A model generated the notes under the pieces. It had not been told where the DNA came from, ran no database searches, and worked only from the letters and a program-made list of their open reading frames with translations. DNA of 64,000 nt from Escherichia coli (GTDB lineage Bacteria > Pseudomonadota > Gammaproteobacteria > Enterobacterales > Enterobacteriaceae): the NCBI RefSeq assembly GCF_029227855.1, contig NZ_CP074356.1; one strand, 5' to 3'. Positions within the stretch are counted from its first letter, which is position 1. Every line of letters begins with the position of its first letter. Shown piece after piece: positions 4,209 to 26,402 of this stretch. Made by a program: the position numbers and the translations under genes.

Positions 4209-5228
4209 ATGAAAAGCATTTTAATTGAAAAACCGAATCAACTGGCAATTATCGAACGCGAAATACCTACCCCGTCAGCGGGTGAAGTACGAGTAAAAGT
4301 GAAACTTGCCGGAATTTGTGGTTCAGATAGCCATATTTATCGTGGGCATAATCCTTTTGCGAAATATCCGCGCGTCATTGGACATGAATTTTTTGGCGTC
4401 ATTGATGCAGTGGGTGAAGGCGTGGAAAGCGCCAGAGTCGGTGAACGCGTTGCTGTCGATCCGGTGGTCAGCTGTGGGCATTGCTATCCGTGCTCTATAG
4501 GTAAGCCGAACGTTTGTACAACACTGGCTGTATTAGGTGTGCACGCTGACGGTGGTTTCAGTGAATATGCCGTGGTTCCGGCAAAAAATGCGTGGAAAAT
4601 TCCTGAAGCAGTGGCCGATCAATATGCGGTGATGATCGAACCTTTTACCATTGCGGCGAACGTAACCGGTCATGGTCAACCGACTGAAAATGATACCGTT
4701 CTGGTTTACGGTGCCGGTCCAATCGGCCTGACGATCGTTCAGGTATTAAAAGGCGTCTATAACGTTAAAAATGTGATTGTTGCCGATCGCATTGATGAAC
4801 GACTGGAAAAAGCGAAAGAGAGCGGGGCTGACTGGGCGATTAATAACAGCCAGACACCGCTTGGCGAGATTTTCGCTGAAAAAGGCATAAAGCCGACATT
4901 AATTATCGATGCGGCTTGTCATCCTTCTATCCTGAAAGAGGCCGTAATTCTGGCTTCTCCAGCGGCACGTATTGTATTGATGGGCTTCTCCAGTGAACCG
5001 TCTGAAGTGATTCAGCAAGGAATTACCGGAAAAGAACTCTCTATTTTCTCTTCACGCTTAAATGCAAATAAATTCCCGGTCGTTATCGACTGGTTAAGTA
5101 AAGGGTTAATTAAACCAGAAAAATTAATTACCCATACGTTTGATTTCCAGCATGTTGCTGATGCCATTAGTTTATTTGAACAGGATCAAAAACATTGCTG
5201 CAAAGTCTTACTCACTTTTTCTGAATAA
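4209..5228 (+). CDS. rspB: zinc-dependent dehydrogenase RspB
   Basis: 339-aa ORF from ATG 4209 (MKSILIEKPNQLAIIERE...), GHEFFG zinc-ADH motif and GAGPIG Rossmann motif. Confidence 0.95.
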   Translation: MKSILIEKPNQLAIIEREIPTPSAGEVRVKVKLAGICGSDSHIYRGHNPFAKYPRVIGHEFFGVIDAVGEGVESARVGERVAVDPVVSCGHCYPCSIGKPNVCTTLAVLGVHADGGFSEYAVVPAKNAWKIPEAVADQYAVMIEPFTIAANVTGHGQPTENDTVLVYGAGPIGLTIVQVLKGVYNVKNVIVADRIDERLEKAKESGADWAINNSQTPLGEIFAEKGIKPTLIIDAACHPSILKEAVILASPAARIVLMGFSSEPSEVIQQGITGKELSIFSSRLNANKFPVVIDWLSKGLIKPEKLITHTFDFQHVADAISLFEQDQKHCCKVLLTFSE

Positions 5229-6730: not shown

Positions 6731-6982
6731 TCAAGTAAGATGACGTCTTGGTCTCGCTGATGCCTGGCGCTCAATCCAGCGATCAATTTCTTCCAGGTTG
6801 TAAAAGCATGGACTGTTATCCCATGGCATACCGTCATGAGCGACATGCTTATATTCCCTTCCTTCCATAAACGATTTTTCCCGGGCCTTTTTTAACGTAC
6901 CTTTTTTTATTCCTTTCAGCGCAATTAACTGCTCTTCGGATACCCATTTGCCGGGAGAGACAATCATGATTACTTCGCTCAT
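6731..6982 (-). CDS. putative excisionase
   Basis: 83-aa ORF immediately upstream of int on the same strand; family assignment not verified. Confidence 0.55.
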   Translation of the reverse strand: MSEVIMIVSPGKWVSEEQLIALKGIKKGTLKKAREKSFMEGREYKHVAHDGMPWDNSPCFYNLEEIDRWIERQASARPRRHLT

Positions 6983-20147: not shown

Positions 20148-20672
20148 TTATTGTTTAACCCATAATAATTCATTGACATTGAATCCCAACTTTTGAGCGG
20201 TTCGCACATAGTCTGCTTTTACTTTATCTGGAATAGTTGGGGTCCTTGCCAGAATCCATAGGTATTCTCTGTTCGAACCACTAACAAGAGCATACTTATA
20301 CTCATCATCCAGTTTGATTACATTATAGCCACCATAGAAGGGGCCAAAAAACGAAACCTTCAACGCTGCAGTTTTAGTATCTCCAGTAAAGTATGCTTTA
20401 CCTTCGCTCTCGCTCCATTTATTTTTCGTTGGATCGTATCCACGGTTAAGTACACGAATCCCTCCGTCGTTCCGTTTTCCATAAGTAGCGCTGACCTGTT
20501 CCAGACCACGTTCGAACCGGTTCTCGAGGCGAGCTATTTCATACCATTTTCCGAGGTAGCGGTTGGCGTCAAAATTTGTAATCGGCTGCACACCTTTAGG
20601 TGGTGTCGGGGCCTTACATGCTATAAGAGTGAAAGAGAGTGCAATGCCAGTCAACACAGGCCATAACTTCAT
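20148..20672 (-). CDS. bacterial lipocalin Blc-like outer-membrane lipoprotein
   Basis: ATG 20672 with SD agga; lipobox LIACK; lipocalin motifs NFDANRYLGKWYEIAR and FFGPFYGGYNVI. Confidence 0.85.
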   Translation of the reverse strand: MKLWPVLTGIALSFTLIACKAPTPPKGVQPITNFDANRYLGKWYEIARLENRFERGLEQVSATYGKRNDGGIRVLNRGYDPTKNKWSESEGKAYFTGDTKTAALKVSFFGPFYGGYNVIKLDDEYKYALVSGSNREYLWILARTPTIPDKVKADYVRTAQKLGFNVNELLWVKQ

Positions 20673-20864
20673 AATCAATCCTGTACTTTTGATAGTTGAG
20701 AGTAAGTATGAAAGATAGATGATTACGACCGATCACTTAAAGAACTTTCATACTATATTAGGAATAGTCCATAACAGAAAAATTGTCAGTGATGACGTCA
20801 GAAAGGCAATTTATTCCGTGCACTACACAGTTTATGTGTTAATGAATTAGTCAAGGGGGAGGAT

Positions 20865-21824
20865 ATGATAAAAAAACCTGTGATTGGAATCAGCGGTTGT
20901 TTGGCCGGTTCTGCTGTTCGTTTTGATGGTGGTCACAAAAGAGCTGACTTTTTAATGGACAAATTAGTGGAATGGGTAACATTCAGACCAGTATGTCCGG
21001 AAATGGCTATAGGGCTGCCAGTTCCGCGTCCTGCTCTACGTCTTGTGCGCTCGAAGCAAGGAAATATACGGATGTGTTTCAGCCACGACCAGAATGAGGA
21101 TGTGACAGAGAGAATGACAGAGTTTAGTCGTTCTTATATGCACAAATTAAAGGATGTATCGGGGTTTGTGGTTTGTGCTAAATCTCCCAGCTGTGGCATG
21201 GAGCGCGTGCGTGTCTATGATGAAAATGGTAATCGAGGTCGTAAAGATGGAGTGGGACTATTTACGAGCACTTTGATGGAAAAGTTTTCCTGGCTACCGG
21301 TTGAAGAGGATGGGCGATTACATGATCCAGTGCTTCGTGAGAATTTTGTTGAAAGAGTTTTTGCTTTGCATGAGCTCAATCACCTTTACAAGGAGAAATT
21401 ATCAAGAAGAGAGTTATTAGCTTTTCATAGTCGTTATAAGCTTCAGTTGTTGGCGCATAGTCAGGCAGGCTATAAAGATATGGGACCATTTGTGGCTGCA
21501 ATACACGAGTGGGCGGACCTTGAATCATACTTTGAGGTGTATCGTGATAAGCTGATGGCGATTCTCAGAAAACCTGCATCACGTAAAAATCACACGAATG
21601 TGCTGATGCATATACAGGGGTATTTTAGTAATTACTTAAGTACACGCCAGCGTAAAGAGTTGACCGAGGTTATACTTAACTATCGCTTTGGCACATTGCC
21701 TCTTCTTGCGCCGTTGACTCTGCTGAAGCATTATCTGGGTGAGTATCCTAATGATTACTTGCTTACACAGAATTACTTCGATCCCTATCCGGAAGAACTG
21801 GCTCTAAGACTGATGGTGAATTAA
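20865..21824 (+). CDS. DUF523 (TudS-like) plus DUF1722 (YbgA-like) fusion protein
   Basis: 319-aa ORF with SD agggggagg; N-terminal Cys-containing GISGCLAG...CPEM...SPSCG; C-terminal half YbgA-like. Confidence 0.75.
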   Translation: MIKKPVIGISGCLAGSAVRFDGGHKRADFLMDKLVEWVTFRPVCPEMAIGLPVPRPALRLVRSKQGNIRMCFSHDQNEDVTERMTEFSRSYMHKLKDVSGFVVCAKSPSCGMERVRVYDENGNRGRKDGVGLFTSTLMEKFSWLPVEEDGRLHDPVLRENFVERVFALHELNHLYKEKLSRRELLAFHSRYKLQLLAHSQAGYKDMGPFVAAIHEWADLESYFEVYRDKLMAILRKPASRKNHTNVLMHIQGYFSNYLSTRQRKELTEVILNYRFGTLPLLAPLTLLKHYLGEYPNDYLLTQNYFDPYPEELALRLMVN

Positions 21825-22230
21825 CTGTATGCGATATCATCTGAAAGTGATGAGTTCCTGTATGCAGGATATTTACAATCGTAAAAACTACACTATGATA
21901 CCCATAGTGTCAGTTTGTATAAAAATCCTGTTCACGCTGAAGAAAACATTGAGATGCAATTTAATGTTGGTAAACATACCAGCCCCAAAAGATTTTATTC
22001 AATCTGTTTTTATATGAAGATATTTCAAGTGAATATTAAGAGTATATAATATTATTATTGCACGCAGCTATTATAATATAACAGATTAGTTTAATGATTT
22101 GTTTTTTGTGAGTTAAACACATGGTTTTATAGTTGTGATGCAATGAGATTTTCCTTATTGTTGAACTGGCGAATATTGATTTTCCACCTATACTTACCTG
22201 GTGTAACCCCAGTGATATCAGGTGGATAAT

Positions 22231-22944
22231 ATGCCATACATATGTTCTGTCATTTTGGTGTTGAACTCGTTTGGTGTCCGAATTGGTAAAGAAGATATTT
22301 TGTTTAAAAAAGGAAGTGCTGTCCTCATCGAATACAATTTAAAAGATCTTTTTTCGTCAAATACAGATCATCTAATGATCGTAGATGTTGAGGAGAAAAC
22401 AGTTAATGATTTCTTTAAAAACTACACACTCTCACCTTTTTCTGTAAGAAGGTTTTATCCGGCATACTTGATAGTAGAATGTGAAGGTTTTTCTTTGTTA
22501 AAGAACTTGGTTGCATGCTTGAATTGTGATAGCAAAACCGTGGATGTGGTTAGAAATCAAATATCACTTGCATGTCTTGCTGTCTTATCTTCAGAGAAAA
22601 TAGTGCAAAGTTTTTTGTTCGGAAGTCTTAATAGCTTAGGTTGTAAAGTTAAGGCTATTATTCACTCGGATATCTCAGCGTCATGGAGACTTTGTGATAT
22701 ATCTTCAAGATTATATATGAGCGAGAGTTTGTTAAAAAGAAAATTAAAAGACGAAGGGGTATCGTTTAGTAGATTAATTCTTGAAGAACGAATGATGATG
22801 GCGCAAAGATTATTAATTTACAGTAACCATACTGTCGGCAAGGTGGCGGGAATATGCGGGTATGACAATGCATCATATTTTGTAAGTGTTTTTAGAAGAT
22901 ATTTTGGTGTGCCTCCGCACCAATATTTATCAAGATTTTCTTAG
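22231..22944 (+). CDS. AraC-family transcriptional regulator (AppY-like)
   Basis: C-terminal AraC HTH (GKVAGICGYDNASYFVSVFRRYFGVPPHQY); N-terminal half resembles remembered AppY; AT-rich. Confidence 0.8.
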   Translation: MPYICSVILVLNSFGVRIGKEDILFKKGSAVLIEYNLKDLFSSNTDHLMIVDVEEKTVNDFFKNYTLSPFSVRRFYPAYLIVECEGFSLLKNLVACLNCDSKTVDVVRNQISLACLAVLSSEKIVQSFLFGSLNSLGCKVKAIIHSDISASWRLCDISSRLYMSESLLKRKLKDEGVSFSRLILEERMMMAQRLLIYSNHTVGKVAGICGYDNASYFVSVFRRYFGVPPHQYLSRFS

Positions 22945-23135
22945 AAGATATGATGTGATGGCATTTTATAAAGTTGTTTTTTTGAAGTGTAAGATTATAC
23001 GATATTTTTAGCTACGCCAGAATAATTGCTGGCGTTTTTCTTTTTGAATAGATGTTCGGGCCTTACGCTAATGTAATTTTTTTCCTTCTTCGAACCAAAC
23101 CGTGTACACCATCCGTTATCTGCGGAGGTGAGGCT

Positions 23136-23351
23136 ATGAAATCCATGGATAAGTTAACAACGGGCATCGCCTACGGCACCTCTGCAGGCAGTGCTGGCTA
23201 CTGGTTTTTACAGTTGCTCGATAAAGTCACGCCCTCACAGTGGGCGGCAATAGGTGTATTGGGTAGTCTGGTATTTGGCATGCTGACGTATCTGACTAAC
23301 CTTTATTTCAAGATTAAAGAAGACAGGCGTAAGGCTGAGAGAGGAGAGTAA
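23136..23351 (+). CDS. class II holin
   Basis: 71-aa product [73 protein letters not shown] ggaggtgagg. Confidence 0.85.
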
Positions 23352-23355
23352 TCCA

Positions 23356-23700
23356 ATGACTCAAGTATACGAACTGGTTGTGAAAGGAGTCCGTAATTTT
23401 GAGAATAAAGTTGCGGTAACTTTAGCCTTACAGGACAAAGAACGCTTTGACGGTGAGATTTTTGACCTTGATATCACTATGGATCGTGTTGAAGGTGCTG
23501 CACTGGAGTTTTATGAGGCAGCAGCCAGAAGGAGAATCAGACAGGTGTTCTTGGATGTTGCTGCCGGGTTATGTGAAGGGGATGAGCAGTCGCCGGAAAA
23601 GCGCCCCATAATTTTAGAGGCGCAGAATGTGTGGATAACCTACAAAGGAAAGCTACCAGGAAGAATTACTGGTTATCTGAAGACTCCGCCGGAATGTTAA
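23356..23700 (+). CDS. YdfR-like lysis-cassette protein (DUF1327)
   Basis: 114-aa ORF MTQVYELVVKGVRNFENKVAVTLALQDKERFDGEIFDLD... resembles remembered YdfR. Confidence 0.7.
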   Translation: MTQVYELVVKGVRNFENKVAVTLALQDKERFDGEIFDLDITMDRVEGAALEFYEAAARRRIRQVFLDVAAGLCEGDEQSPEKRPIILEAQNVWITYKGKLPGRITGYLKTPPEC

Positions 23701-23938
23701 TTTTAACAGCATATTTCTCTTCCAGTAATGCCACCAGCCACTTGAAGGAATTTTGTTGTTCCTGGGACCATTTGGGGCTGTGTGATTCAAGCTGGAGCGA
23801 TGCCAGTGTTGGTTGCATTTGTTCCCTGGGAATTGACAATGCCAGATATGAAAATGCGACAGTAAGGGCATTAACATCATCCCGAAGCCTGGAAATGCAG
23901 TCGAGCAACTCCTGAAGAGAAATGGTGTTATTGTCCAT
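23666..23938 (-). CDS. hypothetical protein encoded antisense within lysis cassette
   Basis: 90-aa minus-strand ORF with good RBS (gagga, 6-nt spacer); acidic, protein-like composition. Confidence 0.45.
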   Translation of the reverse strand: MDNNTISLQELLDCISRLRDDVNALTVAFSYLALSIPREQMQPTLASLQLESHSPKWSQEQQNSFKWLVALLEEKYAVKINIPAESSDNQ

Positions 23939-24043
23939 AAATAATCCTCTTGATTGTATTTACCTGTTCTCCGCCTGATTCAACAGGTTGGGACAGATAA
24001 ACATATCCTGGGTTCAGAAATCGATAAATCCTGATAAATATCC

Positions 24044-24577
24044 ATGAACGTAAAAGTCAAATACGGCCTGTCGGCTGCCGTTCTGGCGCTGATTGGTGCT
24101 GGTGCATCTGCTCCCCAGATACTTGACCAGTTTCTGGACGAAAAAGAAGGTAACCACACAATGGCATACCGTGATGGTTCCGGCATATGGACCATCTGTC
24201 GGGGTGCCACAGTGGTGGATGGAAAACCCGTTTTTCCCAATATGAAACTGTCGAAGGAAAAATGCGACCAGGTTAACGCTATTGAGCGTGATAAGGCTCT
24301 GGCATGGGTGGAGCGCAATATTAAAGTACCACTGACCGAACCACAAAAAGCGGGTATCGCGTCATTTTGTCCCTATAACATTGGCCCCGGTAAGTGTTTT
24401 CCGTCGACGTTTTATAAACGGCTGAATGCTGGTGATCGTAAAGGTGCATGCGAGGCGATTCGCTGGTGGATTAAGGACAGGGGGCGTGATTGCCGCATTC
24501 GTTCAAATAACTGTTACGGTCAGGTTATTCGTCGTGATCAGGAGAGCGCGTTAGTGTGCTGGGGGATCGACAGATAA
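24044..24577 (+). CDS. phage lysozyme (endolysin) with signal-anchor-like N-terminus
   Basis: 177-aa ORF; hydrophobic N-terminal segment (LSAAVLALIGAGASA) consistent with a signal-anchor-release endolysin; lysozyme family assigned by position after the holin and resemblance to remembered prophage lysozymes. Confidence 0.85.
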   Translation: MNVKVKYGLSAAVLALIGAGASAPQILDQFLDEKEGNHTMAYRDGSGIWTICRGATVVDGKPVFPNMKLSKEKCDQVNAIERDKALAWVERNIKVPLTEPQKAGIASFCPYNIGPGKCFPSTFYKRLNAGDRKGACEAIRWWIKDRGRDCRIRSNNCYGQVIRRDQESALVCWGIDR

Positions 24578-24875
24578 GCAGAATATTTCTCTGAAAAATG
24601 ACGTTGGCCAACGCGAGTGGATAACACGATATTCGTCATAAATGAATTGAAGTAGTGAATAAGAGCAGAACCCCCGATTGCGCGAACAGTCGGGTTTTTT
24701 GTGTTTCCTGACTCCGGAAAAGCCAAAGGAGAAAGTGTGTTTGATTTTAGCAAACTGATTCGGGAGATTCGAACTATGGTTGAAAAATTATCCACCTGGA
24801 AATTCATTCTTTTCTGGCTGGTGTTTGCGATTATGGCCTCCGGTTATTTCATTGCTCAGATACGCTGGTGGTGAA

Positions 24876-25340
24876 ATGAAACCGGTTCTGTATGCGGTGA
24901 TTGTTATTCTACTGGTGGTCAGTGGTGCGCTGTTGCTGGCAATAGCCCATTACCGCGATAATGCCATCATCTACAAAGAGCAGAGAGATGATGCGAAGAC
25001 AAAACTCAGCCAGGCGAACGCAGCCATTACTGACATGCAGCAGCGCCAGCGTGATGTTACTGCACTCGATGCAAAATACCTGAAGGAATTAGCTGATGCG
25101 AAAGCTGAAAATGATGCTCTTCGTGATGATATTGCCGCTGGTCGTCGTCGGTTGCACATCAGAGCAGTCTGTCAGAGCGTGCGTGAAGCCACCGCCGCCT
25201 CCGGCGTGGGTAATGCAGCCGCCCCCCGACTGGCAGACACCGCTGAACGGGATTATTTCACCCTCAGAGAGCGACTGATAATAATGCAAAAACAACTTGA
25301 AGGGGCACAGCTATACATTCGAGAGCAATGCCTCAGATAA
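24876..25340 (+). CDS. i-spanin Rz
   Basis: ATG 24876; N-terminal TM ([22 protein letters not shown]) then coiled-coil region. Confidence 0.8.
25096..25278 (+). CDS. o-spanin Rz1 lipoprotein, nested in Rz in the +1 frame
   Basis: 60-aa product [23 protein letters not shown]... with lipobox and proline-rich stretch [15 protein letters not shown]. Confidence 0.75.
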
Positions 25341-25657: not shown

Positions 25658-26062
25658 CTATATTAATGGTCTGTTATTTTCAACATCTTCCATGTACAAA
25701 AGATCGTGATCAAACGAATAGTAAAACCTTATGTTTTTATCTATATCTGTAATCCAGCGATAAACACCTGCTTTTGCTAAAGTGAGACGATATTGATGAA
25801 ATGTAGATTTACCTGATATAAGATTTCTGGCTGCTTCTTTAATTAATTCTGGTTTCTTTGATGTGCTAACTTTCACAAGTCCTCTACTGCCTCGAACTAA
25901 TAAAATATTATCATCATGAGTAATTAGTCTTATATTATCAGTAGCCAGATAATAAATATAATGCGCAATATTATGGCGTTTTAATTCGGAGTAAAACCAT
26001 GGGAAGTATAAATTACTTCTAACGTGTTCGAATATCTCTTGAAAAATATCTGCCTGCTCCAT
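25658..26062 (-). CDS. hypothetical AT-rich moron protein
   Basis: 134-aa minus-strand ORF (MEQADIFQEIFEHVRSNLYFPWFYSELKRHNIAHYIYYL...) between spanins and terminase; start uncertain. Confidence 0.45.
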   Translation of the reverse strand: MEQADIFQEIFEHVRSNLYFPWFYSELKRHNIAHYIYYLATDNIRLITHDDNILLVRGSRGLVKVSTSKKPELIKEAARNLISGKSTFHQYRLTLAKAGVYRWITDIDKNIRFYYSFDHDLLYMEDVENNRPLI

Positions 26063-26402
26063 CAGGAAATATCCTCTTGTCACTGCTACTTCTTACCATG
26101 AGCTTAGATAGTTTGCATGATTTGTTCTCTCACATCAATCTGATCCGACCTCATTGAGGTGGGCGTTGTGAATACCTGATAAGAAATGTGGGTCCTCCCA
26201 ATGGGGGAGGCTGGCACGGGGCGGGAGCGTCGCGGAAAAAGGCTAGTTTTTGCATTTCCATGGCGGCGGCAGCATGTTTGGTAATTTATTGATAATTAAA
26301 AGTTATTTCCCTTTTCACCTGTACAATATTTTTTTCTTCCTGTCATTAGACCAGTTTGCAATTAATTGAAATATATAAATAAACCTGATTTTCACCTGCC
26401 AG

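Follow-up and report, generated by a model that had tools for sequence, protein, structure and literature searches.

A small-protein gene family carried antisense to the late operon in the lysis region of Escherichia coli prophages

An open reading frame (ORF) of 90 codons runs antisense to the late operon in the lysis region of a Qin-like Escherichia coli prophage. Sequence comparison identifies it as a real protein-coding gene, of which the long ORF on the opposite strand is the shadow, and identifies the segment that carries it (about 23555..24030 of the window, by which we mean the whole stretch of 64,000 nucleotides analysed here) as a replacement or insertion. Relatives of the gene occupy several positions away from lysis genes, chromosomal ones among them, and the protein has no membrane segment. 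These four points are backed directly; the promoter of the gene, the timing of its expression, the binding mode of its product and the resulting phenotype we infer. Taken together, the comparisons make it probable that the gene is a moron-type accessory gene, i.e., a portable unit that lies backwards in the late operon, is expressed in the lysogen and encodes a cytoplasmic binding protein.

E. coli WP2-W18-ESBL-08 has a Qin-like prophage that matches the window at 100% identity. PGAP annotates the ORF there as WP_069903859.1, "hypothetical protein", and some sources name its product Ybl58. Annotation as a hypothetical protein and membership of a PHROG were thus already on record; what is new here is that the coding strand is proven, that the replaced segment is defined, that the family is linked to a chromosomal dinI-bssS gene in Yersiniaceae and relatives, and that its antisense placement in late operons recurs. 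In literature searches, neither ybl58 nor the WP accessions nor phrog_2411 led to a publication or dataset; transcript, ribosome-profiling and proteomic evidence for the gene was not found, and no gene in the LF82 moron table is recognisable as the antisense ORF. The gene is common, being present in about 19% of complete E. coli genomes, in the B/BL21 lineage and in an Stx2k-converting phage, yet it has no Pfam or NCBIfam model and no literature. The present results make of this nameless "hypothetical protein" a family that is defined and can be tested, and steer experiments towards lysogen phenotypes and away from lysis timing. Nothing is overturned by this, and lambdoid prophages hold plenty of unknown morons.

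Table 1. Features of the lysis region in the window and of family loci elsewhere (positions refer to the window unless a contig is named)
Feature	Position	Strand	Remarks
P21-type class II holin	23136..23351 (within listed ORF)		PF04971
YdfR-like gene, 114 aa	23356..23700	+	Pfam DUF1327 (PF07041), E 5e-42
Variant C-terminal third of YdfR-like gene	23556..23700	+	Left part of replaced segment; boundary approximate
E. coli counterpart of convergent partner ORFs	23587..23700	+	
Terminator-like hairpin GCGCCTC-N9-GGGGCGC, then TTTTCC	23595..23623	-	RNA fold; 43 nt past stop of antisense ORF
Shadow ORF, 94 aa	23631..23915	+	Third codon positions coincide with antisense ORF
Alternative minus frame, open for 75 codons	23653..23880	-	ORF listing
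Antisense ORF, 90 aa	23666..23938	-	ATG start; ORF listing
ATG of antisense ORF	23936..23938	-	Read from sequence
AT-rich spacer, 105 nt, 37% GC	23939..24043	-	Presumed promoter and leader of antisense gene
Shine-Dalgarno AAGAGGA of antisense ORF	23945..23951	-	6 nt 5' of ATG; read from sequence
Candidate promoter TTGAAT / TACAAT	23978..23983 / 23953..23958	-	N19; PWM scan
Candidate promoter TTTATC / TATGTT	24023..24028 / 24000..24005	-	N17; PWM scan
Phage lysozyme	24044..24577	+	Listed ORF, domain match
Rz with embedded Rz1	24780..25340		Listed ORF, domain match
DUF1398, YdfO-like gene	25658..26083	-	Second antisense passenger, directly after Rz; GC3 only 0.24
Family gene, Citrobacter prophage (L092)			Antisense, directly 5' of holin
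Family gene, contig L083			Antisense, 5' of two small genes, DUF1441 and terminase
Family gene, contigs L108-L110			Antisense, between tail genes M and L
Family gene, contig L107			Adjoins AIDA-type autotransporter
Family gene, Serratia, Chimaeribacter, Sodalis			Syntenic chromosomal gene X in pyrC-dinI-X-bssS-solA
Convergent partner ORFs	L092 5239..5430; L083 5248..5436; L108 4261..4476; L086 1068..1325	-	
Shared leader	L083 4925..5003; L108 3925..4003; L086 765..823; L200 4790..4848; L092 4925..5003		

Coding strand of the antisense reading frame

The initial annotation had described an acidic, 90-residue ORF with a good ribosome-binding site on the minus strand, overlapping the last 35 nt of the YdfR-like gene and lying between holin-proximal genes and the endolysin gene, and each part of this description was confirmed. 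The product has a pI of 4.61 (D+E 12 versus K+R 7), the start codon is preceded by the Shine-Dalgarno (SD) sequence AAGAGGA, the overlap is convergent (23666..23700), and the surrounding genes encode a P21-type holin, the YdfR-like protein, lysozyme and Rz. Homologues, for which a search had been proposed, were found in PHROG 2411 and in several enterobacterial genera, and the family HMM of PHROG 2411 spans the product end to end (residues 1-90 on profile positions 1-90 of 90, E 3.4e-53). Codon usage, lack of support from which had been named as a refuting point, was scored with a model trained on 34 long ORFs of the window. The antisense ORF gave a log-likelihood ratio (LLR) of 0.186 per codon, within the range of the neighbouring genes (0.13-0.27), whereas the values for the plus-strand shadow and the alternative minus frame were -0.04 and -0.07.

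Three long ORFs overlap in this stretch of about 270 nt, and the ORF on the plus strand is unmasked as a shadow only beyond short-range comparison. An antisense ORF of 90 codons is not improbable by chance. Alternatively, the antisense ORF might be no gene at all but the shadow of a 94-residue gene on the plus strand, with which the cassette would stay unidirectional. This reading draws on the common third codon positions of the two ORFs and on the lower pN/pS of the plus frame within E. coli (0.29, versus 0.41 for the antisense ORF), as measured in 48 unique region versions aligned from 80 IMG/VR loci. In the same 48 sequences, variable sites in the antisense-ORF stretch number 28, 11 and 12 by codon phase, the periodicity of coding sequence, and the non-synonymous changes have a mean BLOSUM62 score of +0.30 in the minus frame and -0.63 in the plus frame. 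Stops interrupt the plus frame in six of the sequences and the minus frame in one, leaving the antisense ORF intact in 47. As a discriminator, E. coli diversity failed to separate two frames that have their third positions in common. At six divergent loci, the family frame alone is open, and the coincident frame on the other strand contains one to five stops in every one of them. In chromosomal orthologues, pS is near saturation (0.58-0.75) versus a pN of 0.11-0.21. With 18 Ser and 5 Cys residues, the plus-frame product is rich in both, and it has no PHROG match. We conclude that the minus ORF is a real gene because of its homologues, the openness of its frame and its codon usage; the distant homologues and codon usage already refute the shadow hypothesis, to which we attach hardly any probability.

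The alternative minus frame is interrupted by stops in 14 of the 48 sequences. Variants of 94 residues (P0044, P0047, P0050 and related clusters; 1501..1785 in contig L106) continue in the other minus frame after W57-S58. A programmed frameshift at this point was rejected in view of these stops and of the inspected assembly, L106, in which the lysozyme and Rz genes are split too. The frame-switch variants are most likely indel errors in assemblies.

Replaced segment and genomic contexts of the family

In the Qin prophage of K-12, ydfR (103 aa) ends on a stop codon that overlaps the rrrQ start, with no antisense gene between the two. Aligned with K-12 Qin, the window is more than 90% identical from the start of ydfR up to about 23555 and loses homology thereafter, until this returns about 10 nt 5' of the lysozyme ATG. 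The intervening segment measures about 475 nt in the window versus about 100 nt in K-12, and consists of a new C-terminal third of YdfR (114 versus 103 aa for the whole protein), the antisense ORF and the 105-nt spacer. Since the antisense gene is absent from K-12 Qin, where ydfR abuts rrrQ, this segment is, by alignment, a replacement or insertion, which bears out the earlier suggestion that the antisense gene could be an insertion. Extra DNA between genes that are adjacent in related phages is one mark of a moron. By base composition, another such mark, the ORF is inconspicuous, with 44.7% GC (44.6% for the module) versus 47-51% in its neighbours (holin 47.2%, lysozyme 50.0%; window 47.8%), and the spacer alone stands out (37%).

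The YdfR-like protein is chimeric, with the first ~67 residues almost identical to K-12 YdfR and the last ~47 unrelated to it. Residues 1-72 of K-12 YdfR bind the catalytic half of RNase E, and YdfR co-purifies with RNA (PMC13232886); as the chimera keeps the ~67 N-terminal residues, the RNase E-interacting part is therefore retained. The antisense ORF itself has no Pfam match to PF07041 (YdfR/DUF1327) at E <= 1, the DUF1327 member being its neighbour on the plus strand.

The premise of the initial annotation that lysis cassettes are normally unidirectional proved too strong. Downstream of pR', morons are known to accumulate together with convergent elements, including sRNAs (PMC4104026), and in the window the DUF1398 gene lies antisense after Rz, so that antisense genes are routine in this region. 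Three cargo genes that are not phage-like, encoding a lipocalin (minus strand), a YbgA/DUF1722 protein and an AraC-type regulator, occupy the classic pR'-proximal moron site between the Q antiterminator gene and the holin gene (20148..22944). A terminator-like hairpin is located at 23014..23035, just 5' of the holin gene.

A cassette query matched about 5293 of 5426 complete E. coli genomes, and most of the ORF segment was present in only 1052. E. coli B derivatives, BL21 and REL606 among them, have it in Rac under the accession WP_000370546.1, and 428 contigs encode exactly the protein of the window. In 80 of 80 E. coli-type IMG/VR loci the gene order is holin, YdfR, antisense ORF and lysozyme, with the spacer fixed at 105-106 nt. 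In phiSTEC1575-Stx2k, the holin-YdfR-ORF block is followed by a different set of holin, holin and M15 peptidase, which places a mosaic joint in the spacer. This phage (contig L097, 1285..3303) has two tandem lysis sets, two further holins and the M15 peptidase replacing the lysozyme, and carries an IraM-like anti-adaptor gene antisense between stx2B and the first holin.

Beyond E. coli, an exhaustive profile search of 1.8 billion representatives yielded 20 proteins, among them relatives of 80-97 aa that align with the window protein at 25-54% identity. About 60 more clusters came from a second profile search, in Serratia, Sodalis, Chimaeribacter, Chania, Gibbsiella, Acerihabitans and Citrobacter. 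Homologues in Citrobacter, Serratia, Sodalis and Chimaeribacter have 80-106 aa and 25-55% identity. Truncated copies of 46-78 aa are frequent among the database clusters, and the large intact clusters hold 34-370 members. In all phage contexts the family gene is antisense to the late operon, and its place within the operon varies (Table 1); one of these places is flanked by tail genes M and L, direct neighbours in lambda. Three of the four phage contexts are near the lysis or packaging end, and hence a link to late-gene control may exist. On the chromosome, the dinI-bssS family gene is present on at least 1000 Serratia contigs, and Sodalis and environmental relatives have more family paralogues in ordinary chromosomal surroundings.

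These contexts bear directly on lysis timing, the other role suggested by the initial annotation. As a lysis-timing factor, the protein would bind the cytoplasmic tail of the pinholin or the SAR endolysin and thereby delay or sharpen lysis. The place between holin-proximal genes and endolysin in all 80 E. coli-type loci speaks for such a factor, as do the Citrobacter copy directly 5' of a holin gene and the acidic nature of the protein, which in principle would allow it to bind the holin at its basic C-terminus. However, other family members lie between tail genes or beside terminase genes, the syntenic dinI-bssS gene of three genera has no lysis genes nearby, and K-12 Qin and most such E. coli cassettes do without the gene (5293 cassette matches, 1052 carriers). 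Moreover, convergent late transcription would shut an antisense gene down exactly when lysis is timed, and the protein lacks a transmembrane segment. Because relatives occur elsewhere in late operons and in the Serratia chromosome, the gene is not a dedicated lysis-timing factor, and we regard this role, which the comparisons do not support, as very unlikely. The varying late-operon positions and the phage-free copies point instead to the behaviour of a moron-type passenger rather than of a lysis component.

A small ORF of 62-85 aa on the sense strand runs towards the family gene in five contexts (the short contig L086 and four from phages), the two overlapping by 7-35 nt at the 3' end of the family gene; the variant YdfR C-terminus fills this place in E. 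coli. The partner ORFs begin with (T/S)LE(Q/E)xV..LE, and three of them, as well as the YdfR variant, end with (I/L)(T/F)GxLxxP. Homology between partners is significant solely for the Citrobacter prophage (L092) versus L083 (E 7e-7) and marginal for L086 (E 0.006 and 0.06), and a two-gene module with a homologous partner is unsupported for the L108 partner and the YdfR C-terminus. The Citrobacter prophage also encodes an isrI-type Hfq-binding sRNA at 6929..7026 of L092 on the minus strand (Rfam RF01392, 51.7 bits, above the gathering score).

Expression signals and upstream leader

A consensus scan of the minus strand called neither a promoter nor a terminator, and consensus and PWM scans together revealed no convincing sigma-70 promoter for the antisense gene. 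The best PWM score was obtained for TTGAAT-N19-TACAAT (11.7 versus a shuffle 95th percentile of 10.8). Its spacing is poor, and it ends 14 nt before the ATG; transcription from it would begin inside the SD sequence and thus leave this sequence out of the transcript. Variability in the spacer is lowest in the block 24000..24043 (pi 0.01-0.02), which contains the TATGTT candidate; TATGTT or TATGAT with a flanking CCCTGG is common to the regions upstream of the L108 and L092 homologues, which have 36-55% protein identity. The 48 unique E. coli-type regions contain nine distinct versions of a 111-nt stretch; all of them have the same ATG, and their SD sequence reads AAGAGGA, AGAGAGG or ATGAGGA. 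Past the stop codon of the gene, the terminator-like hairpin sits within the variant 3' part of the YdfR-like coding sequence and is kept in 45 of the 48 unique regions, being weakened in three (two of 13 versions of this stretch). It shows no covariation, and the scan left it uncalled because its U-tract is only 4 nt. Given these signals, independent transcription of the antisense gene is plausible.

Control by the SOS response was considered and rejected, with no LexA box upstream of the family gene in the window or in Serratia. The CTGT-N8-ACAG sequence of L083 was discarded as a LexA box too, having a GC-rich interior and being in reality the stem of a conserved hairpin. In Serratia (contig L089, 4586..4605 and 4884..4907), the upstream dinI has a LexA-box-like CTGTATAAATATCCAG and a terminator hairpin of its own; the family gene there is therefore a separate transcription unit, without its own LexA box.

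Distant family members have an upstream leader of ~80 nt in common, which is conserved better than their coding sequences (Table 1). Hairpin P1 has 8 bp and a GTGGGA or GTAGGA loop, its stems being CGACTGTG, CGCCAGTG and CGTCAGCG, each with a matching 3' arm. Hairpin P2 has the stems GCGGAG, AAAGAGG and CCGAAG, again each with a matching 3' arm, and its loop contains an SD sequence and the three-codon mini-ORF ATG GCT GAT TAA. RNAalifold found four compensated pairs in P2, and the leader of distant members has no Rfam match. This element, seen in four to five lineages, may represent a new cis-regulatory leader. The E. coli copies have a degenerate leader only, in which the mini-ORF ATG is lost.

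The degenerate upstream region in E. coli and the lack of a strong promoter in our scans would also fit a silent hitch-hiker, i.e., a real family whose E. coli prophage copy is an unexpressed, slowly decaying remnant riding the holin-YdfR module. The many truncated clusters of 46-78 aa point in the same direction, as does the pN/pS of 0.41 compared with 0.11-0.12 in the holin and lysozyme genes. However, the neighbouring YdfR-like gene has a similar pN/pS of 0.37, the third-position bias persists (28, 11 and 12 variable sites), and all but one of the 48 unique sequences are intact, alongside intact clusters of up to 370 members. With the exact protein on 428 contigs, an invariant ATG and a preserved SD sequence, a remnant of this kind seems decidedly unlikely.

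It is also conceivable, although unlikely, that the transcript is more important than the protein, with antisense transcription, running through the 3' end of ydfR and against the late mRNA, insulating the lysogen against leaky endolysin expression or yielding an antisense RNA that destabilises the late transcripts of related superinfecting phages. Consistent with this, no phage context departs from the antisense orientation of the family gene relative to the late operon, and its 3' end always overlaps a sense-strand ORF. There is also precedent in STnc6030, an antisense RNA that lies within BTP1 prophage late genes and blocks related phages (PMC7067206), and in the convergent sRNAs at the pR' moron site (PMC4104026). 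Conservation at the protein level argues against it: homologues of 25-40% identity keep their length, helices and motifs despite DNA divergence. Furthermore, the chromosomal copies have no late operon opposite, the SD sequence and ATG are conserved, and no Rfam match was found.

Predicted protein, proposed role and known systems

An AlphaFold2 model based on a 48-sequence alignment (pLDDT 81.7) has helices at residues 8-35, 38-52 and 59-77 and a disordered tail at 79-90. The conserved core of the family comprises the hydrophobic residues L11, L12, I15, A28, F29, Y31, L32, F65 and L68, plus E51. The maximum Kyte-Doolittle value over 19 residues (KD19) is 0.93, versus 1.62 for the P21-type holin, and the GRAVY is -0.35. 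By KD19 the protein has no transmembrane segment and in Pfam it has no holin match, so that the features of a holin or antiholin were not found. Profile searches of Pfam, NCBIfam, PADLOC and the PDB returned no match for the protein; for PADLOC, at E <= 1, the same was true of two homologues, YdfR and two partner ORFs. Kinship to DinI or BssS was discarded (hhalign probabilities 0.3% and 0.1%), and none of the fold or family matches was informative on what the protein binds. The product is thus predicted to be a small, soluble, acidic three-helix protein, which probably acts by protein-protein contact.

For the moron-type passenger that we favour, we propose that a self-contained unit entered the Q-dependent late operon in reverse orientation, between the YdfR-like and endolysin genes, and that the insertion would have supplied the new 3' end of ydfR and the 105-nt AT-rich leader. 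The gene would be transcribed from a weak promoter of its own in the spacer, independently of late transcription and mainly in the lysogen, until strong convergent late transcription silences it after induction. The protein would bind a host or phage partner in the cytoplasm and would benefit the lysogen rather than the lysis machinery. Several observations weigh against this model. The scans gave no convincing sigma-70 promoter, the best PWM candidate having a 19-nt spacer, and the terminator-like hairpin has four U and no covariation. The base composition is close to that of the neighbours, constraint is relaxed within E. coli (with frequent truncated copies), and no fold or family match points to a binding partner.

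The RNA and the protein could also both be functional, in the manner of an "antisense guard" made up of a portable leader, the small-protein gene and the sense mini-gene, in which the RNA would silence late mRNA and the protein would modulate stress. Phages would insert this cassette backwards at various points of the late operon, and the transcript made in the lysogen would pair with the late polycistronic mRNA, destabilising both leaky resident transcripts and those of superinfecting phages. A stress gene linked to dinI and bssS on the chromosome of Yersiniaceae would have been the source of the acidic three-helix protein, which would modulate a host stress pathway, and the two-hairpin leader of distant members, with its three-codon mini-ORF, would be a new cis-regulatory RNA controlling the protein gene. 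We consider this dual function quite improbable.

Among known systems, STnc6030 of the Salmonella prophage BTP1 is likewise a unit antisense to prophage late genes and active in the lysogen (PMC7067206). It is non-coding, however, and acts by RNA pairing, whereas the antisense ORF is conserved as a protein and has chromosomal homologues without a late operon opposite. PHROG 2411 matches the antisense protein over its full length. This PHROG carries a functionless label and covers only the phage-borne, Escherichia-type branch, to which the present work adds chromosomal homologues. The passengers of Qin- and DLP12-type prophages (YdfO/DUF1398, YnfO, GnsB and CspI), whose functions are unknown or stress-related, are also small opposite-strand genes between lysis and packaging genes, and ydfO and ynfO of K-12 Qin occupy the same place as the DUF1398 gene of the window. 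In contrast to the antisense ORF, to which they have no sequence relationship, they sit after Rz and not inside the cassette. Lambda bor resembles the antisense ORF in being a small accessory gene near lysis genes, on the strand opposite to the late operon and absent from similar phages. Both bor and lom, morons of the late region, are transcribed in the lysogen (cited in PMC7067206). The two systems differ in that Bor, encoded after Rz, is a lipoprotein of the outer membrane that carries a signal peptide and is known for its serum-resistance phenotype, whereas the antisense protein is predicted to be cytoplasmic, acidic and helical, and its gene lies between ydfR and R and overlaps ydfR.
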